IMG/VR virus record: IMGVR_UViG_3300031841_003747
Coordinates: 1-56,033 of that record
Reading direction: 5' to 3' (one strand)
Source of the DNA: a virus
Taxonomy: Duplodnaviria; Caudoviricetes
DNA length: 56,033 nucleotides
In this document: positions 1-17,700 of the stretch, one piece after another
Position numbering within the stretch: position 1 is the stretch's first letter
Layout of the letters: each line of letters opens with the position of its first letter
Notes under the pieces: generated by a model
The model's input: only the letters and a program-made list of their open reading frames with translations
What the model was told of the DNA's origin: nothing
Databases searched by the model: none
Translations under genes and position numbers: made by a program

Positions 1-2
1 GT

Positions 3-491
3 AAGGTATATAGGACAGGCGTGTATCCTGAGTGGTGCTTCGATGCAAAGCTAATGGATATCCCCAAAGGTGTACCACCTGTGCTACATCGCATCCTTAC
101 TGAGTGTATAGAGCATGCCTCATCCAGTTACCACTTGCCACTAGAAGATGGGTCATTGGACTACCACCCCCTATTCTATTGTTGTTGGTATGGTTGGCGA
201 GAGCCATGGATGGACAAGCGACTAGAGCGTATGGTGCTAAACAATTACAACTATGCTTACACACCAGACCATGTACTCGACTCACTCAAGTCAAGGCCGG
301 GAGATCAGGGGCAAGGGGATGATCTAACATGGAAGGTGTACGAGGATCTATGGAAGTACAATGAGAATACAACAGATCAAACATGTATGCCCGAATGTCA
401 TACACTATGCGAAGCAGAGGAGATCATAAACAAATTCAAACCATTCGCACAACTAATCAAATATATAAGCCATGAGATACAGTACGTTTAA
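3..491 (+). CDS. Hypothetical protein, probably 5'-truncated by the window edge; sits where PRTRC protein F normally lies
   Basis: Frame is open from base 3 through the GTG at 21; overlaps the E2 gene; the PRTRC-F identity is from position only. Confidence 0.55.
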   Translation, partial: KVYRTGVYPEWCFDAKLMDIPKGVPPVLHRILTECIEHASSSYHLPLEDGSLDYHPLFYCCWYGWREPWMDKRLERMVLNNYNYAYTPDHVLDSLKSRPGDQGQGDDLTWKVYEDLWKYNENTTDQTCMPECHTLCEAEEIINKFKPFAQLIKYISHEIQYV

Positions 492-1083
492 TGCAAAGCA
501 TTGCTTGATGGTGTACGAGGATGAGCAATCAACACTAGATCGTCCAGCCTGCCTACTCTATGACAAGCAAGATAACAAGTGGGGCAACGCAAGGACACTA
601 TCCCCAGAGGAGGTAGATACTATCTTCAAGTTTCGACAGGATCAGTTCTTCTCAAAGCCAGCGGTACTCCCTGAGTGTATGCTGTGGTACGAAGCAGATA
701 AGTGCTTGATGTGGTATCAGAACCCATGCACTAGACCAATGACGGTACGAGGAAAGAAGGTAAAGTACTCACACCCAGGCTTAGTGTTCATGGTATCTGC
801 CAACGCCATGCGTATCTGTGTGTACTCAAAGAAAGAAGCATTCCGCCCGACATTCACCACCAAGCTATATGAGAATCCATACTCCAATGTGGATACACAC
901 TATGGTCATGGCAATGTGGGTCTATGCCGTGTGCCTAAGTTCACTCAAGAGTATGCACATAAGCTAGATGCGTGGGAGGAGTGGACAGATATGTTCTACG
1001 AGAGTGGGTTCAACAAAGTACCTACACCAAGAAATAAAATAAAACAAAAAGACTTAACACTAGGAGAATGGATATGCGGATAG
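472..1083 (+). CDS. Prokaryotic E2 family D protein (PRTRC system protein B-like)
   Basis: LMWY, HPGLVF, TKLYENPYSNV-GNVGLC and WTDMFYESGF resemble Prok-E2_D motifs; directly upstream of a PRTRC-type ThiF. Confidence 0.8.
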   Translation: MRYSTFNAKHCLMVYEDEQSTLDRPACLLYDKQDNKWGNARTLSPEEVDTIFKFRQDQFFSKPAVLPECMLWYEADKCLMWYQNPCTRPMTVRGKKVKYSHPGLVFMVSANAMRICVYSKKEAFRPTFTTKLYENPYSNVDTHYGHGNVGLCRVPKFTQEYAHKLDAWEEWTDMFYESGFNKVPTPRNKIKQKDLTLGEWICG

Positions 1084-1739
1084 AAAATATATCAGTGTAC
1101 GGATGTGGTGGTACGGGATCACATATACTCAACGGACTTGCCCGTATAGATCATGCGTTGAAGAGCTTGAACAAGTTTACATTCCAGGTAACTGCGTATG
1201 ATCCAGATACAGTAACCGAACAGAATGTAGGCAGACAGGCATTCTACCCATGCGATGTGGGTGTCAATAAAGCCAAGGTACTATGCGAGCGTATCAATCT
1301 CTACTACCATACAAGGTGGCGAGCAGTACCAAGCAAAGCACCATCGTCAGATAAGACAGACCTATTCATTGCCTGTGTGGATACGGTCAAGTCACGGGAA
1401 GCAATCGCTAAGTCATGGCATAAGAAAGGTACATACATGATCGACTGCGGTAATGCCAAGTCATCGGGTCAGGTACTACTTGGCCAATTCAATGGCAAGC
1501 TACCCAATCTATATACCGAGAATGATGAACTAATCTACGGGGATGAACCCGAGGATGACTTCTCATGTACCGATCAGTACTACAGGCAAGACCTATTTGT
1601 TAATAACGCCGTCGCATTACAGGCTCTGCAAATCGTGTGGAGTATGGTGCGGTGGGGCAAAATAAACCATAGGGGTGTGTTCCTTGATATAGAACGAGGA
1701 GCGATGAACCCCATAAAAATAGAAGAGGATATCATATAA
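1068..1739 (+). CDS. PRTRC-type ThiF/E1 ubiquitin-like activating enzyme
   Basis: GCGGTGS Rossmann loop, YDPDTV-NVGRQ, NKA, CVD, DCGN-GQVLLG, SC(x6)QDLFVN with the putative catalytic Cys. Confidence 0.92.
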   Translation: MDMRIENISVYGCGGTGSHILNGLARIDHALKSLNKFTFQVTAYDPDTVTEQNVGRQAFYPCDVGVNKAKVLCERINLYYHTRWRAVPSKAPSSDKTDLFIACVDTVKSREAIAKSWHKKGTYMIDCGNAKSSGQVLLGQFNGKLPNLYTENDELIYGDEPEDDFSCTDQYYRQDLFVNNAVALQALQIVWSMVRWGKINHRGVFLDIERGAMNPIKIEEDII

Positions 1740-2428
1740 TGGATATGAACGCATACAGGCAGAAGAAAGCTTCTGCCCCAGGAATAAAGAAAACATCATC
1801 AGGTGACAATGTAGTAGTCATTGATGCCACAAGGGATGCAGACCCTGCTATCCAAGAGGCGATCGAGAACCACTATCACGGCACTCAGTTAAAGAAGGAT
1901 GGCACAGGTTTGGTTGAACAGTCCAAATACTTACAGCGTGTTGTTCGAAAGAGGCTCTTAGCTAATCGCTCAGAGGATAGACCTAAGCGATTTGAGTTTA
2001 AGGGTGAGGTGCATGGTGAGAAGCATACCGTCAAGGTGACCGTTAAGACTAGTAATTATAAACCATTCGATGATGGTGTCCGTCACGAGATCGAGCAGAT
2101 CGGCGTAAAGTATGACGAGGACGGGAAGAAGGTTGGTAAGTCTGCGGGCGAGCAGTTCCTTGAGCGGGCTGTTACACAAACTGCAGTATGTAAGGTAGAC
2201 TTCAGCTTGATACCGGAAGACATGAAGAACGAGGTGTTCAACCACATATTACAAGTCAATGCGATGTGTGGTATTACTGAGAAGGATATCGAGGATGGTG
2301 CTATACCTATCGTGGATATCTCATTCGGTAACACTCCGACCAGTGAGTACCACAACTTGCGTACCCTACTGACTGAGGGTGATGACAAACTCCTAGAAGA
2401 TATAACTCCTGCATCGCTATCGTACTAA
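1739..2428 (+). CDS. Hypothetical protein (229 aa)
   Basis: TAATG overlap with ThiF; no recognisable motif. Confidence 0.75.
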   Translation: MDMNAYRQKKASAPGIKKTSSGDNVVVIDATRDADPAIQEAIENHYHGTQLKKDGTGLVEQSKYLQRVVRKRLLANRSEDRPKRFEFKGEVHGEKHTVKVTVKTSNYKPFDDGVRHEIEQIGVKYDEDGKKVGKSAGEQFLERAVTQTAVCKVDFSLIPEDMKNEVFNHILQVNAMCGITEKDIEDGAIPIVDISFGNTPTSEYHNLRTLLTEGDDKLLEDITPASLSY

Positions 2429-2911
2429 ATGAAGAAGAAATACGAAAAGGCAGAGATACTAGACCTCTGGAATACTTATACTGTGATGCTCGGACATCAA
2501 GAGAGGCAGGAGAAGTACTCAAAGACTAAATATAGAAACAAACACCTTGAGAGGTATGAAGGTCGCACCCGCGGGAGCTATGAGGCATTCATGATGAATA
2601 TCTCTACCGCAAGAGATAAGCACGGACTACCTGTACTCAAGGGATACAAGCCATCCATGCCTAACTACAATAGATATCTCGATAAGATATGTGAGACTAC
2701 TCTGGGCATAAAGGATACCCCACCCCAAAGGATAAGATATGTAGCGAACTGCATAGAGGCAGGTGAACTATTCTCCACGACATTCATTAGCGTGAAGACT
2801 GATCCTCGTGAGCTGAAGCGTGAGGGTATGGAGCTAGCCGCCGGATGGGGTGCTGAGTGTATAAGTGTACAGAAGGATACCAATCAGGAGAACCTAGACA
2901 AAAATGAGTGA
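2429..2911 (+). CDS. Protein resembling the N-terminal DNA-binding domain of HNH/DUF3883 restriction-like nucleases, without a nuclease domain
   Basis: GRTRGSYEAFMMNIS-HGLPVLKGYKP-NY resembles the GRSRGSIE..QNIS..LG.P.I.GYKP..NY pattern, recalled from memory. Confidence 0.55.
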   Translation: MKKKYEKAEILDLWNTYTVMLGHQERQEKYSKTKYRNKHLERYEGRTRGSYEAFMMNISTARDKHGLPVLKGYKPSMPNYNRYLDKICETTLGIKDTPPQRIRYVANCIEAGELFSTTFISVKTDPRELKREGMELAAGWGAECISVQKDTNQENLDKNE

Positions 2912-3182
2912 GCCTCAGACATTCAAGTCGCCTACAGGATCGGAGTACAGCATCACACCTAGAACAGAGCGCCCTGGTTGGATCGTCACTCGCTTGGCAA
3001 CAGGCAAGGAGGAGATCGTCAGTAAGCTAATGGTAGAAAAAACCATGACTAAACTGAGGGCAGGTGAAGCTATACCATTCCGTCAGATCAATTATACTGT
3101 GGCTATTGAGCAAGCAGTATTGTTCCTACTGATCGACAAGATACATATCAATCCATTCACCAAGGAGTACACACTACGATGA
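2904..3182 (+). CDS. Hypothetical protein (92 aa)
   Basis: Overlaps both neighbours in the operon. Confidence 0.7.
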   Translation: MSEPQTFKSPTGSEYSITPRTERPGWIVTRLATGKEEIVSKLMVEKTMTKLRAGEAIPFRQINYTVAIEQAVLFLLIDKIHINPFTKEYTLR

Positions 3183-3484
3183 GTGAGTATGAGTTTGAAG
3201 ACCTCGATGTGGAACACAAGGGGCAGTCATTCACATGTGCTGGCACATTGAAGTATAGCTATACCCCAGCCTGCCCAGACGAAGCATTCGGATACTGGGG
3301 CGCAACACCTGGTCATGGCGAGATATTCGAGGACTTAACGGTCACTGAATTAACTAGCGTTGAGTGGGAGGATGAGGACGGAAACCTTATTAGGGATACG
3401 AACTACCTACCTACTGACATATCCGAACTGAAAGAAACAATCGAAGGATACTTCGATGCGAACACAGATAAAATAGAAAAATGA
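3179..3484 (+). CDS. Small acidic hypothetical protein
   Basis: ATGA overlap; very D/E-rich. Confidence 0.7.
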   Translation: MSEYEFEDLDVEHKGQSFTCAGTLKYSYTPACPDEAFGYWGATPGHGEIFEDLTVTELTSVEWEDEDGNLIRDTNYLPTDISELKETIEGYFDANTDKIEK

Positions 3485-3834
3485 ATTATTACTTAATTAC
3501 AGACTTCAACCGAGATGGTGAACACGAATACTATGACCGTGTGCCCATAAAGTCATCCAAACCCAAAGAGCAATGGCATGAAAACTGGGAGAACTTATAC
3601 CTGTGCTGGCAATATGGCGCAGGATGGATTGATGAAAAGAATGGAGACTTCTGGTCTGATGACAGGATTGTAAGCGTATATGAAGTGAGGGATATGACCG
3701 AAGAGGAATACAATGTCTTCACCAAGTTTACGTCTGAGTTCGATATTGATGAAATCATCACGGAGGGTAAGGAAAATTGGGACGAGGCAGAGCTTCAACC
3801 AGCATGGGATAAATACAACGAAAAATGCCAGTAA
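3481..3834 (+). CDS. Small acidic, Trp/Tyr-rich hypothetical protein
   Basis: ATGA overlap; D/E- and aromatic-rich. Confidence 0.7.
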   Translation: MNYYLITDFNRDGEHEYYDRVPIKSSKPKEQWHENWENLYLCWQYGAGWIDEKNGDFWSDDRIVSVYEVRDMTEEEYNVFTKFTSEFDIDEIITEGKENWDEAELQPAWDKYNEKCQ

Positions 3835-4271
3835 TAAAGGAATACTTGTTCGTGGGAGAAAAGCGAAGCAACCTAGCAATCAAGATGAATGTAACCTGGA
3901 AAGATGGTAGGCTTGCCGCCAAGCAGTTGTTTGATGCTCTTGACGCATGTGGCATACCAAGGAAGAAATGTAGTTTCCTTAATTGGTGGCCAGAATTTGA
4001 CCGTAGAACAAAAACATGGTCAGAGCAAACGCCACGAGCCACTATCCGTAACATCGACAACCGTAACAAAGAGGGCGGATGGGGATCAGGTGACATCATA
4101 CAGATTGTAGCATTGGGAAATAAGGTGCAGAAGGAGCTAAGTAAAGAAGGTATAGATTTTATACCTGTAATTCATCCTGCGGCACGCGGAACAATCAGAA
4201 AGAAAGAAAACTATGCCGAGCATATTCGGCAACAACTAATAGAAAGTAACACGAAATATAATGTTAAGTAG
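3825..4271 (+). CDS. Minimal uracil-DNA glycosylase-fold protein
   Basis: LFVGEK, IVALG and IHPAAR motifs of the UDG superfamily in 148 aa. Confidence 0.65.
   Translation: MPVIKEYLFVGEKRSNLAIKMNVTWKDGRLAAKQLFDALDACGIPRKKCSFLNWWPEFDRRTKTWSEQTPRATIRNIDNRNKEGGWGSGDIIQIVALGNKVQKELSKEGIDFIPVIHPAARGTIRKKENYAEHIRQQLIESNTKYNVK
4245..4268 (+). promoter_or_regulatory. Degenerate copy of the 24-bp TGTAACAC motif
   Basis: AGTAACACGAAATATAATGTTAAG; contains TATAAT (4257-4262); overlaps the ATG at 4261. Confidence 0.5.
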
Positions 4272-4443
4272 GTACTTGGTATCCTCGGACGGTCATTGCT
4301 TATGCGATGATCGTACCGAGGGTACAGTAACCTTCAGCAAACAAGATGCTGAAGATATTGTTAATCAACTAAAAGAGAAAGGAATAAACGCCCAAGTAAT
4401 TGAGGTGAGGATAAGAAAATGGCTATCTATGATTTGGAGATAA
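4261..4443 (+). CDS. Hypothetical protein (60 aa)
   Basis: Fills the gap between the UDG-like and helicase genes. Confidence 0.55.
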   Translation: MLSRYLVSSDGHCLCDDRTEGTVTFSKQDAEDIVNQLKEKGINAQVIEVRIRKWLSMIWR

Positions 4444-7073
4444 CATCGGACGGTAAGCTCCGATCGTTCCCACAAACCGCACCTGGCGATCTGCAGATGG
4501 ATCTGGAGATTGTGGCAGGTAGATCCCCCATATCACTCGTAGTATCCCTATCGGACTATCGGAGGTTGAGTAAGCTATTCAATCATCCCAAGTGTTTGAT
4601 GTCAGAGGATGCTCGCATTGCAATCGAGACAGCATTGGAAGCGGGTAAGAAGGTCGCACGACCTATTACTAAGCCTACTGATTTCGAGCTGACTGCGTAT
4701 GTCGAGGAGGTCAAGAAACTAAAATGTATAAAGGATGTACACATAGAAGGAGATGATAAGTTCTCAGGACTTCAGCTAACTAAAGGCAGAGAGTATGAGT
4801 TTGTCTCCAAGAAGATTGAGTTCGTTGAACCATTCACCAAGGAGAAGTATCTCTTCGATGAAAGCACCGAGCAGATCGCTACTCGTACACACCAAATGTC
4901 ATTCAAGGGTAATGACTATGCCTTGCAGTTTGTTGATGACCGAGGATGGACAATGAGATTCAGAGATCATCCTACCATTCATACAGATATCAATGAGGCA
5001 AAGATATGGGAGTACTTCGAGAGACCTGATGTACCTACTGTAGCTAGTGACAACATGGATAAATACAACGATGGACTAGATATACTTAGGTATATGGAGC
5101 ATTCTGCTCAGCCCAAGTTCTCGTTTTTCCCAGGTCAAATGAAGTATATTGCATCTGCATCATGCTCTGACTCTGCACTGATTGCCGCCGAGACAGGGTG
5201 TGGTAAGACATTGATTGCGATATCACTTGTCATGATGAAAGCTCCCGGTCGTGCATTGATCTGTGCCCCCAAGGGTACAGTGGCATCTAAGGACTCAAAG
5301 GTACATGCTCAATGGGTTAAGGAGTTTAGGAAGTTCGCACCCGATATTCCTGTGTACAAGCTATTCACGCCAGGTGATTATGAGAAACTAAAGAATGAGA
5401 ATGGTGGTGAACTACCCTATGGGGTTTTCCTCACCTATGACCATGCTATGTTTCGTGGTGGTATGGAGCATATACCTAACGCTTGGTTTGAGAAGAAGAA
5501 AGACGAGGCAGGCAAGGTCATTACCCCAGACCCAGAGGCTAAGTATCGTGAACACCTCGAGGAACGGAAGATAAAGGTACCACCATTGTTTGATGCCATC
5601 GGTACCCGTGACCGAAACAACTACCACTTCGGTATTGGTGAGCAACGCACTATGCCCGTACTCAATAAGGGTGCAGTTACTGGTGAGAAGGTATGTATCC
5701 GTTGTGTATCTGAGCCATGTATGGCAACAGAGATCGGACTAGAGATGTGGGACATGGTGATCTTGGACGAGGCACATGCTATATGTAACCTTGATGCACA
5801 GATGACCAAGAACTTCATCCGGTTGCAAGCTAAGTACAGATTCGCTCTGACTGCTACTCCTATACCTAATATGATCTGGAATATCTTCTCTCTGATGGGT
5901 TGGCTCAGTGTACCTCATTGGTACTTCGGTGATCGATCCAATGCCGCTTGGCCTTACAAAGTGGATGAGATGACTGGCAGAGGTGGCTTCATTGATGAGT
6001 TCGTCACCAAGGAGATCGACCATACGCAAGCAAAGATGAATCAGAAAGCTGGCAAAGGTCCCGCCGCGGTTAAGCGATCACCTAAGATCAGTCAGCAAGC
6101 TAAGCTACTCAAGCTGATTAGACCAATGGTGGCATTCATACCCAAGGATAGATGTAATCCTAATCTACCTAAGCTAAATGTACTCAAGATTAGTGTGCCG
6201 ATGTCCAAGGAACAGAGACAGAATTACAGTCACTACATGAACCCAGCCCATGTTAAGACCAAGAACAAGATGACTAGGTATGGTACTCAACTAGCATATC
6301 TGCGTGGTATTGGTAACAATCCAAAGTCATGCGGTAAGAATCGTACAGAAGGTTCATACAATCTGTTCTCCAGTACAGACTACACACCTAAGACACATGC
6401 TGCTCTTGAAAATGTATACAATATACTATCCAAGGGTGAGCAAGTACTCATTGCTGGTGCGGCTATTGACCAGCTCAACGAGATGCAACGCAGGCTATCG
6501 GAAGCTAAGATCAAGTACACGGTTATCAATGGTGACAACTCAGATAAGGCAAGTGCGGCAGAGAAGTTCAAGTCAGGTGAAGTACCTGTACTATTCATGT
6601 CTAATAAGTGTGCCCAGGCACTATCCTTTGAGCAATGCTCCAACATGATTATCATGTCCCTTGACTGGGCATTCGGTGTATTCGATCAGACGGTGGGTCG
6701 TTGCTATCGTGTTAATTCACCCAAGGATGTGAACTGCTACATCTACCTACACTCTGAGTCACTCGATGAGTTGATGTTCGACAAGCTATGCTCCAAGCAA
6801 GATGCGGCAACCATTGCCCTGCATGGCGAGAAGGTAGATAACGAGGTAATCACAGTAGATAAGCAATCCATACTTGGTGAGCATATGTTGCAGTGGCAAA
6901 GCCTCCGTGGTCAGATTGATCTATCCGAGGAGACCGAGGCTGAGTTGTTAGCTAAGTGGCCTAGTCTACTCGACAAGCTAAAGACTATCACGGCAGGTGA
7001 GGAATTAGGAATCACCAAGGAGGATCAGGATGCAGTGGCTGAGTTACTAGAGGAGATGGAAGACTATGCCTAA
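4419..7073 (+). CDS. SNF2-family (SF2) helicase/ATPase
   Basis: ETGCGKT (Walker A), ILDEAH (motif II), LTATP (III), QTVGRCYR (VI). Confidence 0.9.
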   Translation: MAIYDLEITSDGKLRSFPQTAPGDLQMDLEIVAGRSPISLVVSLSDYRRLSKLFNHPKCLMSEDARIAIETALEAGKKVARPITKPTDFELTAYVEEVKKLKCIKDVHIEGDDKFSGLQLTKGREYEFVSKKIEFVEPFTKEKYLFDESTEQIATRTHQMSFKGNDYALQFVDDRGWTMRFRDHPTIHTDINEAKIWEYFERPDVPTVASDNMDKYNDGLDILRYMEHSAQPKFSFFPGQMKYIASASCSDSALIAAETGCGKTLIAISLVMMKAPGRALICAPKGTVASKDSKVHAQWVKEFRKFAPDIPVYKLFTPGDYEKLKNENGGELPYGVFLTYDHAMFRGGMEHIPNAWFEKKKDEAGKVITPDPEAKYREHLEERKIKVPPLFDAIGTRDRNNYHFGIGEQRTMPVLNKGAVTGEKVCIRCVSEPCMATEIGLEMWDMVILDEAHAICNLDAQMTKNFIRLQAKYRFALTATPIPNMIWNIFSLMGWLSVPHWYFGDRSNAAWPYKVDEMTGRGGFIDEFVTKEIDHTQAKMNQKAGKGPAAVKRSPKISQQAKLLKLIRPMVAFIPKDRCNPNLPKLNVLKISVPMSKEQRQNYSHYMNPAHVKTKNKMTRYGTQLAYLRGIGNNPKSCGKNRTEGSYNLFSSTDYTPKTHAALENVYNILSKGEQVLIAGAAIDQLNEMQRRLSEAKIKYTVINGDNSDKASAAEKFKSGEVPVLFMSNKCAQALSFEQCSNMIIMSLDWAFGVFDQTVGRCYRVNSPKDVNCYIYLHSESLDELMFDKLCSKQDAATIALHGEKVDNEVITVDKQSILGEHMLQWQSLRGQIDLSEETEAELLAKWPSLLDKLKTITAGEELGITKEDQDAVAELLEEMEDYA

Positions 7074-7257
7074 GTATAAGCCTGTAAAGATAGAGCAAGG
7101 TTGGATCACAGGGAATGACGGTAAAGGTGGTTTACCATATTGGGCCGCTTACGGAGACACCCAGTGGGGACGCAGACAGCGACTCCTAAATGGTACATAC
7201 TGGTTAATAAGGAGACTTAAAGGTGAGCCAACTGGACCTGAGTTTACAGTTAGATAA
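7066..7257 (+). CDS. Hypothetical protein (63 aa)
   Basis: Overlaps the helicase stop; GGAG upstream. Confidence 0.5.
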   Translation: MPKYKPVKIEQGWITGNDGKGGLPYWAAYGDTQWGRRQRLLNGTYWLIRRLKGEPTGPEFTVR

Positions 7258-8032
7258 AGAGTCGTGCGTTCCACCCGGTCTTAAATGGATTAAGAGTGAG
7301 GGGGATATGCCATCTTACCATCTGTATGATCGATTAAAGTACACAGGCTGGAGAGTTGACCATTGTGGTCACCCTACCGCCCTTCGTCCTTATGCTATTA
7401 GTGATGACAATGAGGAGAAAGCATACGCTACACATAATGGATTCGCATTCAGTCATGTATACTGCGCGAGGTGGTCTGCCGAGGAAATGTACAAAGCCAA
7501 GAAGCCCGAGACATGGGAGCATATAGATATACGGATCCGAGACCTACATCAGAGCCGAGCGATCGAAAGGTGCATGAACTATGATGCATTTCCCCGTGTG
7601 CCATATAAGTTCCGCGGGAGCATGGTGGAGCATGTCTATCTGGGCTTGAGATATATCACCCCAAATGTAAAGAAGTATCAAGTAGACCTAGTTAATAAGC
7701 ACAGGCGTGGCAGAAAAAGAGTGGTCGATTCTGTAAAGATTGAGGCAAGGGATAGGTCTGACGCCAAGAGGATAGCTCGATCTCATTGGGTCGGTGGTCA
7801 TGAATATGTATATGACATAAGGCAAGCAGGCTTAAAGGAGCCAATAAAGGATACTGATGAAATGATCGCTCTACTTAAAAAATTAACTGACGAGGGAATG
7901 AAGTTTCCGAAGGCAGGTTATATGAAATGGGAAGATAAATATAAAATAAGTCAGGACTGGACATTCTTTGAGCCTGGTGGATGGAAGTACAGAGGTCTAC
8001 CTGACGGATACGATGTAATAGTAAGGAGGTAA
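7223..8032 (+). CDS. Hypothetical protein (269 aa)
   Basis: Long ORF in the operon; no recognised motif. Confidence 0.7.
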   Translation: MSQLDLSLQLDKESCVPPGLKWIKSEGDMPSYHLYDRLKYTGWRVDHCGHPTALRPYAISDDNEEKAYATHNGFAFSHVYCARWSAEEMYKAKKPETWEHIDIRIRDLHQSRAIERCMNYDAFPRVPYKFRGSMVEHVYLGLRYITPNVKKYQVDLVNKHRRGRKRVVDSVKIEARDRSDAKRIARSHWVGGHEYVYDIRQAGLKEPIKDTDEMIALLKKLTDEGMKFPKAGYMKWEDKYKISQDWTFFEPGGWKYRGLPDGYDVIVRR

Positions 8033-8036
8033 TAAT

Positions 8037-8228
8037 ATGAGTGAATTATATGCATGCCCGCAATGCGGAAAGAAAGATTCTGCATGGGATGATGGACTCT
8101 GTGGAGCTTGTGAGAAAGCTCGAAGGGAGTGGGATGAAAAGATAAAACGAGAAGAACAAGAAGAGTATTGCAAGAAACATGGTGGATACTTCGATCGCGA
8201 TGGCAACTGGAGGGAGGGAGAAGAATGA
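8037..8228 (+). CDS. Small zinc-finger protein
   Basis: CPQC-x10-CGAC; AGGAGG upstream; ATGA overlap with the next gene. Confidence 0.7.
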   Translation: MSELYACPQCGKKDSAWDDGLCGACEKARREWDEKIKREEQEEYCKKHGGYFDRDGNWREGEE

Positions 8229-9040
8229 AGGAATACTTCGTAGGATGTGAAGACCCCAAGCGGGTACACGAACTAGATGCGGCAATGATGAACGCATACT
8301 CATTAAGGAATAGAAAAGAACCACTCAAAGTAAACAGATGGATGTTGGATAGTGGTGCGTTCTCACAGATCGGACTAGGTGAACATGCACCAGGTAAATT
8401 CGTGCAGACACCAGAGGAGTATGTACGCCTTGCCGTACGCTTACAGGACTGCGGAAACCTAGCATGTATTGTCACGCAGGACTATATGTGTGAGCCGGAA
8501 GTGCTAATCGCACAACGCAAGAAAGGATTCACCGCTACTATTACCAAGCATCAGTGTTGGACGGTAGAGCGATACTTTGCGATCTTAGAGGAAGCAGAGA
8601 TACAAGGACTAAGAGTGCCCGTCATGCCTGTACTGCAAGGTGATGACCCGCATGATTACTTGAGGCATTGGCAGATGTACTGCAAGTGCAAGGAAATCGT
8701 GGGTGATTATCGTCCTTATGAGTGGATCGGTATAGGCTCTACATGCAAAAGGAATAATAATCCTGAGTCAGTTGCGGAGATACTAAAGCTACTCGATGAC
8801 CACTACGGTCCACTTACCGACTACAAGGTTCATGCGTTTGGATTAAAGCAGACAGCCCTAGGGTTTTCCGATGTGCGAGATATGTTATACTCTGCCGATT
8901 CCATGGCTCCAGATTATTCTCATAGAGTCGAGTGCAGAGAGAAAGGTATCCCAAGGACCAGACGATCACGCATGGATAATATGCTAAAGTTTCAGGAGCG
9001 TATAAGAAACCAACCCGTGCAAACTTGCTTGACATTGTGA
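8225..9040 (+). CDS. TGT/DpdA-like guanine transglycosylase (candidate 7-deazaguanine DNA modification enzyme)
   Basis: MLDSGAFS, QDYMCEP, MPVLQG, IGIGS, VHAFG, SADS motifs of the TGT barrel; start set at ATG 8225 (ATGA overlap). Confidence 0.8.
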   Translation: MKEYFVGCEDPKRVHELDAAMMNAYSLRNRKEPLKVNRWMLDSGAFSQIGLGEHAPGKFVQTPEEYVRLAVRLQDCGNLACIVTQDYMCEPEVLIAQRKKGFTATITKHQCWTVERYFAILEEAEIQGLRVPVMPVLQGDDPHDYLRHWQMYCKCKEIVGDYRPYEWIGIGSTCKRNNNPESVAEILKLLDDHYGPLTDYKVHAFGLKQTALGFSDVRDMLYSADSMAPDYSHRVECREKGIPRTRRSRMDNMLKFQERIRNQPVQTCLTL

Positions 9041-9045
9041 AGTAA

Positions 9046-9069
9046 AGTAACACTTAGTGAAGTGTAACA
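9046..9069 (+). promoter_or_regulatory. 24-bp motif directly before the recombinase ATG
   Basis: AGTAACACTTAGTGAAGTGTAACA-ATG; TTGACA at 9029-9034. Confidence 0.7.
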
Positions 9070-10131
9070 ATGAAATTAATTAAGTCAGATAAGACAGGTA
9101 TTTACTCCGTTCAGTACAGAACTGCATCGGGTAAAAGACGAACAACATCACTGCAAACGACTAGCAAGAAAGAGGCTACATCTATTGCAAAGGATATCGA
9201 ACAGGCTGAAGGGTTGGCTAAGAGAAACCTACTGACCAAGGAAATCCTTACCACCATGATTACGGATAGGAATATATCTTTCCAGGACTGCGTGAACGAG
9301 TGGTATAACTATTCCAAGGTCAGATCAAAGTCTGGCAATACGATCTATACTCAGTCCACATTGCTCAGTAATTTTAAAACCTCTGCAAAGATCAGTAAGC
9401 TGAGCGAGCTTGAGTCTAAGATGATATCGGACTGGGTGAACGAGAAGGGCAATATGAATGCCAACTCACGCAATCAAAGGCTTGCCGCTATTCGTTCGTT
9501 CTGTGGATATGCTGTAGCAAATTGCTACATGACCAAAGACCCATCGTATGGAATCAAGGTAGACTTATCCAAGCTAGATCATCAGCAAAAGGAAAAGAAC
9601 ATTAGGGTTCCGTTCACCAAGGAAGAGTATGATGCTATGCTCGCCTACGACCCACCCTACTTTATGAAGCAAGCGATCGTGCTTGGTTGGTGGACTGGAC
9701 TAAGGATCATAGATATCTCCAAGCTTGAGTGGGCAAGTATATCAGACACCCATCTAACAGTTTGGACAGAGAAGCAAGACAAGCGAGTTAATCTACCACT
9801 AGACAATCCACTAATCGGAGGCGGTAAGATCAGGGATGTACTTAGCGAAGTGCCTTACGAGGATAAGAAGTATTGCTTCCCTGAGTGGGCTGAGCTTGCC
9901 GATGATCCCAAGAGACGATCAAGATTTAGTGTATACTTTAAGAGATTTCTAGGGCATGTATCAGAGTTCGGTGATTGCGTAATAGAAGGGAAGAGCTTCC
10001 ATTGCTTCCGACACTCTTTTGTTACTCGTATAAAAACTGAGAGCTATGATTCGTCACTTGAAAAGATTGCGGAATGGGTGGGTCATTCTCGAACAGAGAC
10101 CACGAAGGGTTATTTGCACGATGCTTCCTAA
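9070..10131 (+). CDS. Tyrosine recombinase (recombinase A)
   Basis: TGLRIID (R), FHCFRH (HxxR), VGHS, TKGY (Y); arm-binding-like N-terminus and SAM-like region. Confidence 0.93.
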   Translation: MKLIKSDKTGIYSVQYRTASGKRRTTSLQTTSKKEATSIAKDIEQAEGLAKRNLLTKEILTTMITDRNISFQDCVNEWYNYSKVRSKSGNTIYTQSTLLSNFKTSAKISKLSELESKMISDWVNEKGNMNANSRNQRLAAIRSFCGYAVANCYMTKDPSYGIKVDLSKLDHQQKEKNIRVPFTKEEYDAMLAYDPPYFMKQAIVLGWWTGLRIIDISKLEWASISDTHLTVWTEKQDKRVNLPLDNPLIGGGKIRDVLSEVPYEDKKYCFPEWAELADDPKRRSRFSVYFKRFLGHVSEFGDCVIEGKSFHCFRHSFVTRIKTESYDSSLEKIAEWVGHSRTETTKGYLHDAS

Positions 10132-10848: not shown

Positions 10849-11757
10849 CTATTTTGCACGAATTGCCTCAATAATAGGCTCACACACATCAATTTTATCC
10901 TTACTGGTTTTACGCATACTCATCCTAAGCCACACAGCACCAGTAGGTTTGGGTGGTCCTCCCCTCTCAATATGCCATCCACCATAGCCATCAACATATT
11001 CTTCTTTGTAGGACGGAACCTTCAAGTGTAGTTGTTCATCATGGTATACCTTCCCTTTATTAGTTAATCTAATACGAGGGATAGGGAACTGCCATTCATT
11101 GTGAGTATGACCAGTAGCTACAATGTGAGCATCGGGTAGATAAACCGCTTGCCTACTTGTTTGGATAGTTCCCTTAGTCACGGGAGCGTCCCCTCCGTAT
11201 CCATGGTGGTACCACAAATTAACCGACCTTGCTTCTCCAAATAGTAGTAATTGAAACTTTACCCAACCACTAAAACCACCTACATGAATCTTTGTGTTAT
11301 GCCTATCGTTAAGCATACTAACTAATCGCTCAGTTAAGTTTGTCTCGTGCCTCTTAGATATATTTGTTTCATGATTGCCTGGTGCCATGATTGCAAACTG
11401 TTCGGCGTAAGGTCCATAGAAGTCTGCCGCAGTCTTTACTAATGAGTCAAGGTAGTCTCCCTTCTGATGCTCTGGCTTTACATCTCGCTTATCTGATCTT
11501 GGATCATACTTGCCTTGCATAGCACAGAATAGATCACCTCCATCTATTATTATAGCGTTTCTTTCCTTTGCCTGTCGAAGATGTCTAAGCTCCATGACAT
11601 TATCAGACTTCGGATTGTCGTGGTGTCTATCAAAACTGAGTAGTACCCAAAAGGAATCTTTTTCTTTTGTAGACTTAAGTTGGTGTTTTATAAAATGTAC
11701 ATTACGACTCTTCTCTATGATTTCTGTCGTACCGGGGGTTAGTCTTTTGATTGGCAT
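10849..11757 (-). CDS. Calcineurin-like metallophosphoesterase
   Basis: DRH, GGDLF, GNHE, HHG and GHTH motifs. Confidence 0.88.
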   Translation of the reverse strand: MPIKRLTPGTTEIIEKSRNVHFIKHQLKSTKEKDSFWVLLSFDRHHDNPKSDNVMELRHLRQAKERNAIIIDGGDLFCAMQGKYDPRSDKRDVKPEHQKGDYLDSLVKTAADFYGPYAEQFAIMAPGNHETNISKRHETNLTERLVSMLNDRHNTKIHVGGFSGWVKFQLLLFGEARSVNLWYHHGYGGDAPVTKGTIQTSRQAVYLPDAHIVATGHTHNEWQFPIPRIRLTNKGKVYHDEQLHLKVPSYKEEYVDGYGGWHIERGGPPKPTGAVWLRMSMRKTSKDKIDVCEPIIEAIRAK

Positions 11758-14700
11758 TATTGCATCATCATTTGTAAAGCGAGTAGTCTCGCGTCCTCCT
11801 GTCTCATCTGTGACCGCATAGAAGGTTTACGATATCCACCGCCAATTAAGTTGAGGTAGTGTTCATGGGAGGCTTCAGCCTGTTGTACGCGCATGCGATC
11901 TTCTTCACTTAATGCACTCAGGATCATTTCCCACTCCCTTTCGGAAAGTTTTGTTTTAGTTACTCCAGTCTTTAGGCTCCTGCGCTTGTAACTTTCTATT
12001 ACGCTACGCTCGGGGTCTTCTCTTCCATCCACTTTAGCGGCTTCCATTGCTTGCTGGTACTGCTCTAAGAACCCTTGACTATCACCCGCATACGCCGCTC
12101 TTGCCATTTGCCTGGTGTTTACACTTACTCCGGTGGGTCTTCCTCCTCCCTTGTATGGAGGTCTAAGCTCTAGTCCCATCATGAATGCTGTCTTCTTGAT
12201 GGTGTTCTTGAGTCCAATGTAATCTGCTACCCTACGCTCCTCGGAGTCGATATCTAATTGTGCAGTAGCTAAGTCCATCATTTGTATGACAGAATTACCA
12301 CCCACTCCGTATGCGATCGGACGACCTACTGTCTCCCAATCCCACTCACCTTGGTGTATCCATGTGCCAAAAGCATCATAAATATTTTTAATCATGGAGA
12401 ACGCAAAGATTCTAGTATCCAAGCTAAGCTCTCGGGACGCACCATACGGGTCACCTTTAGAGAATATACCATTGATTAGCTCAGTACCCATACCAAATGG
12501 TACACCCGCTTTAGCCAGTCGTGAGGTTACTGAGTAGATAGTAAAGTTAGGATCGGATGCGGCAATAGGTATACCTACGATCGGAAGAGCAGCCCATGGT
12601 GTGATTGGTGGCAAGTTATTTGGTTTCTCCAGCATCTCATCATCATACCAATCAATCATCATACCAAAGGATAATGACAATGGCATATACACAGCAGATA
12701 GTAAGCCGATGTATTTAAGTAAAGCTATGTATGTGGTGGTAGGATCATCGGAGTCACGGATCACTGCGGTAAGGTCACGACCCATCTTACCAAGAGGCCA
12801 ACCAAGGAAGGTATTAAAATATCTTAGGTAGTCATTGGAGTACAACCAGGCAGGTTTTGCATTAAACCCATCCCCTGATATCTGATCCATTGCGATCGTG
12901 TTGATCAGTATCGCAGTTCTTTGCTCAATCGGGAAAGCATTTTTGTCTGCCTTCTTACGATCTATGAAATCAAATGCTAAACGGGTAACGGATGGTAAGC
13001 CGTGAGATATCAGAAGTTCATTCATTCTTCTGTACCCGTCTGCTTCACCAATGATCCACTCTCCAGTCTTGTCCCCCATGCCTAGGTCTTCTGCGGTGAA
13101 CTCGCCATCATACTCGGTAATACCTCTACGCTCTATTTCTTCAGTAACTTGCAGTACCAAGTCGTTGTATGAGTGGATAGCACCTACTCCGATCGAGTGG
13201 TTGACCACATTATTTATATAAGGAAAGATGCCTTTGACTGCGGTAAGGAAATCGAATGGGGCACGAGTACCATCTACATTCTTTCTCTTATTAAACATCA
13301 TGGCACGCTTTACCATCCGTAGATACTTCTTGGCATTCGGTCCATCCATGTCACCACCTGACCCCAACTGCCCTGTAACATACTCCTTAAACGAGAGATC
13401 CATTTCATCTAGTCTAAAGTGAGTATTGTTTAAATACTGGGCATAGCGTCCTGTCTTCTCCATCTCCATACCCATAGCCTCAGCGATACCACCGAATGTC
13501 TGGTTTACGAAGTTACCTAACGCAGTAACCGTCCCCTTCCCTGCCATTTTGTTTAACCCACGAAAAGCCATCGGGAACTCAAACAAACCAAGATTCTGCC
13601 AGAAGGAAGACTTCGGATTGTTCAGTACGGATAATGCTTGAACCCCAAGTAACTCAAGTAGAAGGTTCGCATCCTTGTAAGGACCCGCCGCATTGTCCTT
13701 GCCGTAGTATCTAGCAAGGTGTTCCATTGCTTTGTTTAATTCACCAAGTGCTACTGCTTTGGCATACAATTGATTCCATGCTTTCTCGGCATTAGGCTCT
13801 CCCTCCCGTCTTAGTATGCGGTAAGCTTCTTTCTTTTCTTCCCTGGTATAACTTCTTTGCGGGGAATCATGTTTACCATTGGTTGCTTGAGCCATGATCC
13901 TATTGAACTTGCCCCGTGCTTTCTCGAAACTATCCCGCCCCTCAGTAAATGCAGAACCTGCCTTATCCCCATTCCTACCAAATGTTTTAGTAGCTACTTG
14001 TAAAGCCAAGCGGATACTGGAAGTAACCTCATCATACATGGTATAATAGAAGAACTCCTTCGGCAGACGACTCTCCATCATACGAGCATCCAAACTCTGT
14101 GGAGTATTTCTCATGAGGTGCGAGTCCTTCAGTCCTTGGTGTACTCTATCCCGAAGTAAGCGGTCTGCTACTTTCTTTAACTCCATGTACTTACCATCCA
14201 TCTGTCTAAGGAAGTATGCTTTCCATTGCAGTCTGGACTCTAGTGTTTGACTCTCTGATACCCGATCAAAGATTATGTCAGTCATCTTAAAGATATCCCC
14301 ACCACTCTGACGATATGCTTCCCTTACAAATGAATTACCCATGTATGCGTTGTGACCATCGGAGTCTGCGGGTCCACGGAATACAGATTGTCTTACATCT
14401 GAGTGGAGGAATGGTCTCACAAACCTACCAACTATTTTCTCAGGGAAGATCCGCTTATAAATCTTCTCCATAGTCTCTAAGTCTTTTACACTACCCGCTT
14501 CATTTAGTAGCTCACTTGCCGCTTCCCCACGCCAGCCCACTGACTGCATGAGTTCATTGGTATCTATTACCAAACCATCATTGATGGATCGTGGCATGGT
14601 AGCGTATCCGATATCAATCGGGCGACGATAGAAGTCTACCATCTCTCCATCTATATAAGACTGTACCTTAAACTCATCATCCTTGATACGATTACCAAGC

Positions 14701-17700
14701 TCCATGTTTATCTTCTTCTCGAAGTCACGAGCGGCCAATGCCTTGGCAATCATGTTCTTTACTAGCTTCCTAGCATTAGTATCTAGGAGGGTACGATCCG
14801 GTACATTGGCATACTTGCGGAGGTTTGACCATAGCTGTGAAAATGCTTCCTCTTCATTGCCTGCATACTCGGGATGGTTATCAAACCACCACCAAATGTC
14901 CTGGTATAATCCTGAGTAAAACTCTCTACCACCTAGCTTGAGTGCCCCCATTACTTGCTGTGCGGAAGCATTGAATTGTAGTGCTAGGGATTGAGACTTT
15001 GAGGAGTAGTCACGGAACAAAGCTACTGTCTCGGATGACATCTGCGAGAGCTTCATGCCCTCGTATCCGAGCTTGGAAAACCGCTCGGTCAATCCTTGTA
15101 GTCCGCTCAACCAACTAGCTCTTTGTACATGGAAGAACTCATCTGCTATTGGTTCATGTAGTGCCATGAGTGCTTGCTCACGCATGAGGTCAAACCATGG
15201 CTCCTCCCTGTATAACTTCTGCATCTCAGGGTCTCTTGTAAATCGTAGTGTTTCCTTATTGACCTTAACAAAGTTCGCACGATCCACGATCTTACCATTC
15301 CTGTACTGCACCTTAAAGTTCTTACCCCGTACCCACTCACCACTCTTATCATCCCAACGCATGGTCAGTAGCTCAGCACCATCATGTATAGATACTGGCA
15401 TAAGTTCACCAAGAGATGCTCGGAGACGATCACTACGCACCTTCAAGGATAGGTCGATCTTATTATATATCTCCTGTTCCTTCTTTAATTTCTCTAGGTT
15501 CGCACGCTCAATGATCTCTCCTGCTTTCAGTCTAGCAAAGTATCTAAGTGGAGTACCCTCTACTCCGCTCTTAATAATGATCTTATCTAATTGTTTCTGA
15601 TCTGTTGCTTTGGCGATTTGATGTGCCACATCCATCATGGCTTGCTGGCTCTCTCCGATCCTGCCCTTGCTCAATCTAAACAATGCCATCTGACCAGTAC
15701 TCTCCCGTACTGCTCTCATGATTGCTAGTGCTTTGATGGTAGGTATGCCCATTGCCTTGATTGAATCGAGTAGCTCTCCCTTCTTTTGGGTCTCTGCTAC
15801 ACCAGGTAAATCAATCAGTTGCTCCATGACTGACTCTACCTCACGCTTACTAATTTCTTGTATCGTGCGGATATCTGATTGGGTAAGATCAGCGTTGGGT
15901 AAACTCGTCACATATTCCTTTAAGGTATCAAATGATACCGCATTGGCTTTGGATAGTATGGACTCTACTTGCTTCTCTGCGGGCGGAAATCTTCTAGCTA
16001 ATAGATCTTCATAGAGATGTAAGCTATCTGTGATTGCCTTACTTGCTAAGTCCTCCGCTATGACTCGCTCTTGTAGCTCAGTCCTTGCCTTGGCTCTTAC
16101 TGCCTCAAGATTGGCTACTGCCTTTCTTCTTCCCCAATTAAATGCAATACGATTCAGCCCAGCATCATCCAGTCTTACACCATCAGAGGAATCCATGAAT
16201 GGTTTGAGGTCTCTATCTAGTCTCTTCTTGATCGTGGATATGTTTGAAGTACCGGGTGATCCGTAAAGATCCATGAAGTCTTCAAGCTCTATACCTACAT
16301 CCTTGGCTACCTGTTGGTATACCTTTACTAGCTCGGTTACTAGATCATTGAATCCCGCGGCGTTAGCTTCCATCATTACCCGCATATTCTCATCGGGATT
16401 AGCGTTCTCTAGTCCGTCTTGGAATTGTTCTTGGTACTGAGAGTCAAGTGCTGATGCTTGGATATCCCTTGAGTTGAGGTAGTCTGCTTCAGCTTGCAAG
16501 CTCTCCAACTGATTAGCTAAGTCCTCAGTATTCCTTAAATTGAATCTTTCCTTGTACTTGGTTGCCTCGGGGTGGCGGTCGTACCTTACATCCCCTGCCA
16601 AAATCTGTCCAATTATAGCAATCTCACTCTCAAGGTCATTAAGGGATTGGCTCCACCCTTGGTCGATAAATGGATCGAATAAGAATACTTCTCCGTTTTG
16701 TATTATTGCATTACGGGAGGTTAAATCTCTTACCTGTATATTCCCACGAAGATAAGTATTGTATGGTTCTCCTTCAGATATTCCTTGGATTCCTTGGTTA
16801 CGGAATCCCTTCTTGAGCATCTCGGTATTTATAAGACCAAGCGGAGTGCCTGCTTTTGAGTCTGCCTTTAATGCTTTCTGACTGACTACTGGCATAAGCA
16901 TACGCTTGCCTGAGTCACTCGCTTCTCTTTCTACGAACCCATCTAAGTTTAATTTAACTTCGGGGAAAAATTCATTATGCAAGAGCAACCTTTCAAGGTA
17001 CTCAGATAGTTCGGTATCACCTCTGTATGCTTTTACATACTCTTGTCTATTCTCATCGAAGTAAACATCATGCTCTCCACTAAATACTTGCCCCCAATCT
17101 AGCTCTTCATTGATCTCGCTTTCGTCAATAAGTTGGCTATTTCCTCTCGCAAGTTCCTTAACCTTACCCTTTCGCTCGGTGTCAATTTCTGGGGTGGTGG
17201 TGGCTTTCGATTGAATAATTGGACTGCCATCTCCCTGCCCTCCTCTAAGGACATTGATCGCTTGGATGATGTTGTATTCGGTTGTTCCTGGTTTTGATCT
17301 TTTGCTGATGTCATTTAATACCTCTCTTTGAAAATAAGGTCCTTCAGACCTTAAACCTTCTTGAAACTGTGGGTCAAGCGCAGAAGCTTGGATGTCCTTA
17401 AATTCCAATTCTTTTAGTTTTGGATCAAAGTCTACAGTGCTTAAATTAGTTCCTTGCAGTCCTACTTCTTTTAAGTCTATGCCTTCCTCCTTAACATACT
17501 TATCCATACGCTTTTTAATTTTTTCATTAGCGTTGTTTAAGTAGAATTGTAAACTATCTGCACTGTACTCCCCTCCAGTGAAATCTTCTTTTGCTATGGC
17601 ATCCTCAAGGCGTTTCTCTAAATCCCGTATATTCATATCTTCCCCGAATACCGAAACAGGAAAGTCCATTTTAATTATATCACGCTCTTGTTTAAGTCCT

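Follow-up and report, generated by a model that had tools for sequence, protein, structure and literature searches.

The PRTRC cassette (ParB-related, ThiF-related cassette; NCBIfam TIGR03734-03742) is the same as the operon that Iyer, Burroughs and Aravind (2006, PMC1779556) describe as type 6d, and a passage of a 2026 paper still calls its function unstudied. In the canonical order, ParB-E-C-F-B-A-ThiF, protein C is a ubiquitin-like protein (Ubl), B an E2-like protein, A a JAB peptidase and ThiF an E1-like enzyme. Phages carry it as well. It is found in Ralstonia phage Dina (NC_055026), Burkholderia phage BgVeeders33 and the B. gladioli prophage AB2 (PMC13366799), and PRTRC in prophages is mentioned in portions of two 2026 papers. 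Dina and BgVeeders33 carry full cassettes, with the RefSeq gene names E, C, F, B, A and ThiF in Dina. A first-pass annotation of the locus described below had placed PRTRC mainly on plasmids and ICEs. That view is outdated in the light of these phages and of the 193 IMG/VR stretches that encode the E1 discussed here, which make this kind of cassette widespread in viral sequence. Since PRTRC in cultured phages is already annotated and known, the cassette described here is a variant of a known, functionally uncharacterised one; the variant without JAB is new.

The locus lies at the left end of IMG/VR record IMGVR_UViG_3300031841_003747, whose entire 56 kb form the window (the whole stretch of DNA that was analysed, 56,033 nucleotides). 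The window holds ~72% of a ~78 kb genome from an uncultured marine tailed phage (marine or estuarine), in a lineage with genomes of ~78-81 kb. Its cassette shares with PRTRC the E1 family (over the cut-off), the Pfam family of the E2, carriage on mobile elements and, as seen in relatives, a Ubl family with a G.KG end. The order in the lineage, E-C-[F position]-B-ThiF, is the canonical one minus ParB and protein A (JAB with JAB-N). Compared to canonical PRTRC proteins, the E1 is ~40 aa shorter, the Ubl of the window clade has a 9-residue insertion, and the protein in the F position is without detectable homology. The E2 is ~40-50 aa shorter than canonical PRTRC-B and has its Cys two residues later; the His that follows this Cys is replaced, and the window clade has a D-x-H 9-11 residues before it. 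In the cassettes of cultured temperate phages, the order is the same up to the E2, the E1s are 38-39% identical to the window's, and Dina and BgVeeders33 likewise have no full-length ParB. However, a JAB gene still separates E2 from E1 in these cassettes, the Ubl is extended C-terminally by ~60 aa, and the genomes that carry them measure 33-39 kb.

Other bacterial conjugation systems are more distant. The Bil system (BilA-D) also has separate genes for Ubl, E2 and E1 and no E3; its E2 is proposed, in a section of PMC11601596, to choose targets directly. The same text gives Bil a JAB peptidase and an E1 of several domains, namely inactive and active adenylation domains and a Cys domain, whereas the window E1 is a single domain of 223 aa, the cassette has no JAB and a sequence-family match to Bil was not seen. 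Type II Bub (6E.2) operons, which part of PMC11601596 describes as "typically" without a JAB peptidase, are similar to the window cassette in being ubiquitination-like operons without JAB. They differ in their E2-E1 fusion, Ser/Tyr oxyesters and DUF6527 serine protease; the window E1 and E2 are separate, each with an invariant Cys, and Pfam scans of the window gave no match to DUF6527. The E1-E2 fusion Cap2 of CBASS bears a weak likeness to the nucleotide-binding region of the window E1 (E ~8e-6 against PDB Cap2; 32 bits on NCBIfam 6A-MBL cap2_3, far under its cut-off of 320 bits). Unlike CBASS Cap2/Cap3, the window cassette is without fusion, cyclase or JAB.

The E2 and E1 genes

The window opens with three overlapping reading frames on the (+) strand, 3-491, 472-1083 and 1068-1739, all of them intact and the first open at its 5' end. 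The overlaps are 20 nt between the first two, 16 nt between E2 and E1, and 1 nt between E1 and the next ORF (1739-2428). The 16-nt overlap leaves no space for an intervening gene, and contigs from two other studies span the first ORF, the E2 and the E1 without insertion. A contig of 3.5 kb in run X1 and one of 13.5 kb in run X5 extend 3.4-5.6 kb to the left of position 1. In read mapping to the window, some bins were empty in runs X4, X5 and X8. The E2-E1 pair belongs to the phage's non-structural arm, whose genes are co-oriented on the (+) strand. The cassette is co-oriented and overlapping with genes for replication and DNA modification, such as those for a SNF2 helicase and DpdA, and is not an isolated moron. 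In the complete relative G002, the SNF2 helicase lies immediately 3' of the E1. This, together with the lack of kinship between ORF 1739-2428 and the ORFs 3' of ThiF in Dina or Cupriavidus, excludes that ORF from the cassette. Megablast of positions 1-4400 against GenBank phages gave no match; neither did tblastn of the E2 against phages, nor single-protein viral scans with the E1, P0002 and P0003.

The E1-like adenylating enzyme of the PRTRC ThiF family (1068-1739, + strand; 223 aa, a single adenylation domain) scores 201.4 bits on NCBIfam PRTRC_ThiF (TIGR03736), over the curated cut-off of 144.75, and 47.9 bits on Pfam ThiF (PF00899; cut-off 28.1). Its nucleotide-binding loop, GCGGTGS, can be read at 1101-1121 (residues 12-18). 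G12, G14, G15, G17 and S18 are invariant in 7/7 aligned E1s, as are R56 and D105. From the ThiF/MoeB literature, we take G12xGGxGS18 to be the Gly-rich ATP loop, R56 the Arg finger and D105 the Mg-binding Asp. The motif DDFSCTDQ at 1554-1577 contains Ser166-Cys167 (1563-1568), invariant in the aligned E1s, of which Cys167 is the presumed thioester Cys. When the E1 profile was searched against PDB, the active adenylation domains of eukaryotic E1s ranked first (E 5.6e-10), with ThiF and MoeB further off (E ~7e-6).

The E2-like protein (472-1083, + strand; 203 aa) belongs to a short clade of PRTRC protein B. It scores 68.3 bits on Pfam Prok-E2_D (PF14460; cut-off 25, E 9e-19) and 68.7 bits on NCBIfam PRTRC_B (TIGR03737), under that model's cut-off of 131.45; canonical B proteins of the loci L006 and L007 reach 206-234 bits on it. 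The HMM scores of the cassette are far beyond chance. The motif GNVGLC at 910-927 ends in the codon of Cys152 (925-927), the presumed thioester Cys. It is the only Cys of the protein and sits within a conserved G-x-C-x-V motif in 18/18 clade sequences, two residues C-terminal of the canonical Cys ([VI]C.G) in two alignments. P136, G150, C152, V154, S178 and F180 are invariant in all 18. According to the text on operon type 6d in Iyer et al. (2006, PMC1779556), a His C-terminal to the Cys is "absolutely conserved". The canonical FTH aligns with FN[YRQK] in the short clade: the T position is N in 16/18, and at least 17 of the 18 have another residue in place of the His.

The readings made from the sequence at first pass (an overlapping PRTRC-type E2 and E1, an intact nucleotide loop and SC motif, no JAB gene between the two, and an E2 Cys moved by two residues) have thus been borne out. 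That annotation had also made its case depend on a UBC fold in the E2, and here the family assignment stands but the fold was not confirmed. In an AF2 model with a pLDDT of 81.5, a resemblance to UBC is weak at best: Foldseek found nothing in PDB at E <= 0.001, and the best Z in a VIA-wide search was 3.1. Among the 50 rows listed in that search, 13 are E2 enzymes by title and 7 more are of the RWD, FANCL or UEV type; all of these span model residues 56-203, with Z of just 2.3-3.0. The E2 profile had 0 matches among PDB sequences at E <= 10, and the E2 alignment is too variable to serve for locus scans.

The upstream genes and the 332-aa protein

To the left of the window, related contigs carry an E-like gene, then a Ubl gene, then a gene for a conserved 332-aa protein. 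No Prok_Ub Ubl is present within the window, which begins downstream of its expected place, so the Ubl and E-like genes of the cassette are known from relatives and may be presumed for the window phage. In L004, ~92% identical in nucleotides, a Prok_Ub fragment (Pfam 33.7 bits) lies two genes 5' of the E2 gene. L010 has a full Prok_Ub of 79 aa, with 50.6 bits on Pfam (cut-off 25) and 46.5 bits on PRTRC_C, just above the cut-off of 45.95. The C-terminus reads ...YGTKG in 7/7 clade Ubls, and the L004 fragment is identical in its ending. The E-like protein has weak homology to PRTRC_E (hhalign E 5.6e-5, 66% probability); a canonical-E HMM matches 4/7 E-like proteins, and the one from L010 has no TIGR03741 match.

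The first ORF of the window (3-491, + strand; 162 aa) is the C-terminal part of the 332-aa protein and matches residues 171-332 of L004:168-1166 at 93% identity. The family counts 13 sequences, and its invariant residues include C205, D277, H303, D63 and R110. It has no match in Pfam, NCBIfam, PHROG or PADLOC. Its agreement with protein F lies in position and size: there is no TIGR03742 or alpha-hel2 match, and hhalign against canonical PRTRC_F, with E values such as 0.38-0.44, did not reach significance whether 2, 8 or 13 sequences were used. The AF2 model of the protein (pLDDT 57) was too poor for a structure search, the ESM Atlas gave no usable match, a genome scan with the family found nothing, and a predicted complex of the E2 with the 332-aa protein scored 0.04 against a mark of 0.32. 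Compared to the relative that is ~92% identical in nucleotides, dN/dS is 0.17 for ORF 3-491, 0.27 for the E2 and 0.08 for the E1.

The missing JAB peptidase

The first-pass annotation had suggested that both the Ubl and the JAB genes might lie just left of the window. The Ubl is there in the relatives L004 and L010; the suggestion for JAB was wrong. Neither Prok-JAB (PF14464) nor PRTRC_A (TIGR03735) has a match anywhere in the window or in G001, a relative's record that covers the part missing from the window. In G002-G006, among which G002, G003 and G006 are complete relatives of ~80 kb, nothing scores above the PF14464 cut-off. The same search gave 271 bits for phage Dina, used as a positive control. 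A weak match in G002 (17.1 bits) comes from a RadC protein (128 bits); since it scores as RadC and occurs in 1/5 records searched, it is not a member of the cassette. A JAB-like role could be filled by another, unseen peptidase family. As for ParB, PF02195 has no match in the window or G001, and ParB HMMs have no local match at six clade loci.

Cassette architecture was surveyed in the best 80 of the 193 IMG/VR loci that encode this E1. A canonical cassette with JAB is present in 62; 12 are without JAB in another way, and 6 have the JAB-less architecture of the window. In these six, the five-gene order is retained with E1s 54-67% identical, and the records behind them measure 37-81 kb, three being rated 100% complete and one having direct terminal repeats. 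Viruses thus carry at least three PRTRC cassette architectures.

The ending of the Ubl varies along with them. In JAB-bearing viral cassettes, a tail of 57-100 aa follows the G.[KR]G motif of the Ubl in 55/60, whereas the Ubl of JAB-less viral cassettes is untailed; in a second JAB-less group it terminates at the Gly in 10/11. Because the presence of JAB tracks the C-terminal tail, Ubl maturation becomes a concrete candidate role for JAB in tailed cassettes. The non-viral bacterial loci L005 and L006 have JAB together with an untailed Ubl, so JAB also has a function other than trimming, one that the window cassette is missing. Judged from these sequences, the loss of JAB is coherent and not decay, as the Ubl ending co-varies with the absence of JAB. 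The JAB-less cassettes are minimal three-enzyme systems suited to reconstitution.

A proposed cascade and its rivals

We put at about 0.6 the probability that the window begins inside a five-gene operon (E-like, Ubl, 332-aa protein, E2, E1) that is a reduced and diverged derivative of PRTRC, or "type 6d", and tags proteins during infection. JAB (PRTRC protein A) and ParB would have dropped out of the cassette, and the Ubl would be made already ending in Gly (...YGTKG), so that no trimming would be needed. The single-domain E1, presumably as a dimer, would adenylate the Gly of the Ubl and then load it on Cys167. From there the Ubl would be handed to Cys152 of the E2 and then to lysines of target proteins, which may be those of the host or of the phage. 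The fast-evolving 332-aa protein is possibly a substrate selector or some other accessory enzyme. With no peptidase in the cassette, the phage itself would not reverse the tagging, and transcription of the operon together with genes for replication and DNA modification, such as those for the SNF2 helicase and DpdA, would point to action during infection. Against this reading stand an E2 that scores under the PRTRC_B cut-off and has lost the conserved His, its unconfirmed UBC fold, and the bacterial loci L005 and L006 with both JAB and an untailed Ubl.

A more specific version of this reading is possible but doubtful. In it, the ~80 kb marine phage lineage would run a self-irreversible Ubl-E1-E2 cascade, with a pre-matured Ubl and without a deconjugating peptidase, that acts during infection by tagging proteins of the host, for example factors of defence or DNA handling. 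The 332-aa protein, with its invariant Cys205, Asp277 and His303, would be a substrate selector or a new accessory enzyme, and the loss of JAB and of the Ubl tail would be one coupled step, taken at least two times in viral PRTRC cassettes. The first-pass annotation had put forward conjugation for counter-defence as a possibility. Should the cassette indeed be turned on the host, phages would have their own counterpart to Bil and CBASS, the conjugation-based defences of bacteria.

With the same chemistry, the cassette could instead serve defence in the manner of Bil: it would protect against phages or exclude superinfection by tagging the proteins of competing phages. In its favour, the introduction of PMC11601596 describes those bacterial E1-E2-Ubl systems that have been characterised, Bil and type II CBASS, as anti-phage. 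PRTRC is carried by mobile elements, and the neighbouring ORF 2429-2911 scores 47.7 bits on PDC-S36, a candidate model of PADLOC. A report on a Phocaeicola prophage also names PRTRC protein B, together with a receptor-binding protein next to a diversity-generating retroelement, as a recurrent site of hypervariability, and this variability suggests an arms-race interface. However, PADLOC 2.0, a 2023 release in which models for Bil and Bub may be absent, matches neither the E2 nor the Ubl nor the 332-aa protein, and the E1 reaches at most 20.8 bits on its Cap2-type E1-E2 models. The placement of the operon among overlapping replication and DNA-modification genes, the direct terminal repeats of one complete relative and the lack of an integrated copy in representative bacterial genomes, as scanned with the patterns used, also speak against it. 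The phage is putatively temperate, two tyrosine-recombinase genes being the sole ground for the label. All in all, a defence role is unlikely.

Conjugation would not take place at all if the E1 did no more than adenylate or thiocarboxylate a small beta-grasp protein, as in ThiF/ThiS and MoeB/MoaD sulfur transfer, with the E2-like protein as a non-catalytic binder. This would suit a minimal, single-domain E1 of ThiF type and an E2-like protein whose UBC fold is unconfirmed. It is quite improbable, given that the single E2 Cys is invariant within its conserved motif, that the E1 profile is nearer to the active domains of eukaryotic E1s than to ThiF or MoeB, and that four libraries, scanned with the longer ORFs of the window, gave no thiamine or molybdopterin biosynthesis family.

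It is still less probable, indeed very much so, that the genes are a non-functional remnant of a canonical PRTRC cassette after JAB and ParB were lost. Two canonical components are missing, the E2 is under the curated cut-off and the F-position protein is unrecognisable, but the frames are intact and overlapping, with dN/dS of 0.08-0.27. The five-gene order is conserved across phages whose E1s are just 54-67% identical, and the C-terminus of the Ubl co-varies with the absence of JAB.

Finally, it is barely credible that the E2-E1 left arm comes from another element than the structural genes through assembly error, a possibility raised at first pass and suggested by the uncultured, metagenomic nature of the record and by a drop in GC from ~0.45 to ~0.41 beyond 30 kb, since the independent record G001 contradicts it by joining the left part of the cassette to collinear structural genes and to a TerL that shares 87% identity with that of the window. 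The cassette is also present in the records behind the six surveyed loci, three of them rated complete, and two contigs from other studies, 13.5 kb and 8.5 kb in length, cross the window's left end.

The E2 and E1 genes

The best-supported reading of the left end of this phage genome is that it carries a functional, peptidase-less derivative of the PRTRC (ParB-related, ThiF-related; operon type 6d) cassette for conjugation of a ubiquitin-like protein (Ubl). The PRTRC kind is already known, if functionally uncharacterised, and the peptidase-less form is the new part. The overlapping PRTRC-type E2 and E1 genes noticed in the first-pass annotation are borne out by family matches, overlap and motifs. 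The E2 gene (472-1083, + strand) shares 16 nt with the E1 gene (1068-1739, +) and 20 nt with the ORF upstream of it (3-491, +), and the motifs GNVGLC, GCGGTGS and DDFSCTDQ lie in the sequence where they had been placed. The 223-aa E1 scores 201.4 bits with PRTRC_ThiF (cut-off 144.75) and is also matched by Pfam ThiF. Its residues G12xGGxGS18, R56, D105 and S166-C167 are invariant in 7/7 aligned sequences, and the active adenylation domains of eukaryotic E1s ranked ahead of ThiF, MoeB and Cap2 in a profile search.

The E2, of 203 aa, matches Prok-E2_D of Pfam at 68.3 bits (cut-off 25) and reaches 68.7 bits with the NCBIfam model PRTRC_B, which is under that model's cut-off of 131.45. Canonical PRTRC-B proteins have their Cys in [VI]-C-x-G, whereas the Cys of the window E2 aligns two residues later, in [MV]-G-x-C-x-V. 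An exhaustive search for homologues returned 60 representative proteins at E <= 0.001 (13 at E <= 1e-10), the nearest forming a short clade (proteins of about 200 aa) in which P136, G150, C152, V154, S178 and F180 are invariant (18 of 18 aligned sequences). In the passages of Iyer et al. 2006 (PMC1779556) on this operon type, a His C-terminal to the Cys is described as absolutely conserved. The short-clade E2s are without it, having FN[YRQK] where canonical proteins have FTH; D141 (17/18) and H143 (16/18) lie 9-11 residues N-terminal of their Cys. The Cys shift is not exclusive to the short clade, since two homologues of canonical length, P0018 and P0027, keep FTH yet read V-Q-L-C-G, with the Cys at +2.

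An AF2 model of the E2 (pLDDT 81.5, built from 15 aligned sequences) is rich in beta structure towards the N-terminus and has a beta-meander (residues 70-119), the loop with the Cys, and helices. With this model, Foldseek gave no match at E <= 0.001, and a VIA search of 48,161 chains gave none at Z 5. Among the 50 VIA matches listed, 13 are E2 enzymes by title, aligned over model residues 64-203, and 7 further are of RWD, FANCL or UEV type, all at Z 2.3-3.0. The model search is compatible with a UBC-like core, short of proof.

Genes to the left of the E2 and the missing peptidase

The window's record ends at base 1, and the upstream cassette genes were read from relatives. In L004, a metagenome contig of about 92% nucleotide identity to the window, the protein partly encoded by ORF 3-491 is complete at 332 aa, the ORF covering its C-terminal half. 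Directly 5' of the full-length gene is the 3' end of a Prok_Ub gene (33.7 bits), whose product finishes in ...YGTKG. The IMG/VR record G001 (locus L010) terminates within the 332-aa gene (55% identity) and has 5' of it a complete 79-aa Ubl with the C-terminus ...YGTKG, scoring 50.6 bits with Prok_Ub and 46.5 bits with PRTRC_C (cut-off 45.95). This Ubl gene is preceded by that of a 185-aa Lys/Glu-rich protein, weakly related to PRTRC_E (hhalign E 5.6e-5, 66% probability); the canonical E HMM matches 4/7 short-clade E-like proteins. The first-pass annotation had proposed that Ubl and JAB genes may both lie just left of the window. In these relatives the Ubl is there and the JAB is not.

In canonical order, as in the Undibacterium locus L006, the cassette runs ParB-E-C-F-B-A-ThiF, the A protein comprising DUF2016 and the Prok-JAB peptidase. 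Prok-JAB, PRTRC_A and ParB_N have no match in the window's record or in G001; the positive control, PRTRC_A of phage Dina, was recovered at 271 bits. Nor is there a Prok-JAB over cut-off in the clade relatives G002 (80.8 kb), G003 (80.6 kb, with direct terminal repeats) and G006 (78.3 kb), all rated 100% complete. A sub-threshold JAB match in G002 (L016:10635-11084) is a RadC protein (PF04002, 128 bits); its gene, about 3 kb 3' of the E1 gene, is not found in the window's record, G001, G003 or G006.

The 332-aa protein has zero matches in family searches (including PADLOC), its homology to canonical F is undetectable, and its AF2 model is poor (pLDDT 57). Its family of 13 sequences (24-94% identity to the first) has C205, D277, H303, D63 and R110 invariant. 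The canonical counterpart gene is described in the same passages of Iyer et al. 2006 as coding for a "rapidly diverging alpha-helical protein" that "may function as an enzyme". Against relatives at about 92-96% nucleotide identity, the C-terminal half of the 332-aa protein has a dN/dS of 0.17, the E2 one of 0.27 and the E1 one of 0.08. Between G001 and the window, the 332-aa protein is 55% identical and TerL 87%, a gap pointing either to much faster evolution of the cassette than of the structural module or to an exchange of the cassette.

Viral PRTRC cassettes and the Ubl tail

Scanning IMG/VR with an alignment of the E1 yielded 193 stretches confirmed by tblastn, and the best 80 of these 193 loci were surveyed with local HMMs built from the cassette loci studied earlier. 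Among these 80, the canonical architecture with JAB between E2 and E1 is found in 62, a JAB-less one with the Cys in canonical position in 12, and that of the window (E-like, Ubl, 332-aa family, short E2 and E1, without JAB) in 6. The second JAB-less group (L048, L065, L073, L079, L086, L088-L093 and L095) has E2 and E1 adjacent in most loci and, at the F position, a 359-421-aa protein of marginal F similarity at best (hhalign E 0.004). In the Dina-like loci L044, L051, L053, L060, L062 and L084, an ORF of about 265 aa right after ThiF weakly matches the local ParB HMM (27-38 bits).

Phage-borne PRTRC is not new in itself. The full E-C-F-B-A-ThiF set is present in Ralstonia phage Dina, with every PRTRC protein named in RefSeq, and in Burkholderia phage BgVeeders33. 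The relevant part of a 2026 paper (PMC13366799) mentions the cassette for prophage AB2 of B. gladioli, and that of a 2026 preprint reports that, in a Phocaeicola prophage with a diversity-generating retroelement, PRTRC protein B is a recurrent hypervariable hotspot. The three architectures of viral cassettes are new as far as the literature searched shows, as is the co-variation of JAB presence with the Ubl tail. All 7 short-clade Ubls and the L004 fragment terminate at ...YGTKG, and 10 of the 11 Ubls in the second JAB-less group terminate at Gly (the other at Ala). In the JAB-bearing viral loci (L022-L094), 55 of 60 Ubls extend 57-100 residues past G.[KR]G and 5 extend <=7. Every JAB-less cassette seen encodes a ready-made Ubl, which we read as evidence that these are working systems and that JAB may mature the Ubl in tailed cassettes. 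In the bacterial loci L005 and L006, JAB occurs together with an untailed Ubl, so JAB is needed for more than trimming. From family knowledge and the conserved residues, the terminal Gly of the Ubl would be adenylated, and the Ubl would then pass to Cys167 of the E1, to Cys152 of the E2 and finally to a target.

Genome setting and role of the cassette

The record (56,033 bp, linear class, 72% complete by CheckV) has two arms. The + strand arm (1-10,131) holds the cassette, seven small ORFs, an SNF2 helicase (4419-7073) with partial ZorD and DpdE model matches, a DpdA homologue (8168-9040; PF23859, 92.5 bits) and a tyrosine integrase (9070-10131). The order SNF2, DpdA-like, integrase is found again in the complete relative G002, and these genes suggest DNA modification of the 7-deazaguanine type. 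We favour a cassette that acts during infection, given its presumed co-transcription with genes for replication and DNA modification, and the terminal repeats in a relative. The main rival is a role in defence. The E2, the Ubl and the 332-aa protein are not matched by any PADLOC model; for a neighbouring 160-aa ORF (2429-2911, +) the only match is PDC-S36, a PADLOC candidate model for defence (47.7 bits, E 4e-13).

An assembly chimera is rejected on the TerL identity with G001 and on collinearity, G001 23.0-44.5 kb running with window 55.4-34.8 kb (longest aligned block 75% nucleotide identity). The first ~22.4 kb of G001 therefore bridges the window's right and left ends, giving a genome of about 78 kb, consistent with the CheckV estimate. 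In contigs of two other studies, the 332-aa gene, E2 and E1 are joined without insertion and extend past the window's left end.

The - strand arm (10,849-55,872) carries a 3751-aa polyvalent-type protein, tail fibres, the portal, the large terminase and a second recombinase. The 3751-aa ORF (11757-23012) has Kinase-PolyVal (residues 1974-2116, 36.6 bits) as the sole domain identified, and we take it to resemble the giant "polyvalent proteins" described for phages and conjugative elements. The tail-fibre genes (28105-34056) encode a collagen repeat, a Peptidase_S74 chaperone, a SASA-type acetylesterase domain and an Mtd_N N-terminal domain, Mtd being the major tropism determinant; no reverse transcriptase was seen among the window ORFs scanned. 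The second tyrosine-recombinase-like gene (54255-55271), at the far end of this arm, matches a PHROG integrase at 72 bits and has no Pfam match at 1e-3. No tRNA genes are found in the window, and GC falls from about 0.45 at 1-30 kb to about 0.40-0.43 at 30-56 kb, the drop lying inside the structural arm. The first 4.4 kb is present in metagenomes from 9 studies (seawater, marine, estuary). Within it, a 765-base stretch (3478-4242) that takes up almost the whole of ORFs 3481-3834 and 3825-4271 is missing from contigs of runs X4 and X5, which come from two other studies; this looks like strain-level indel polymorphism.
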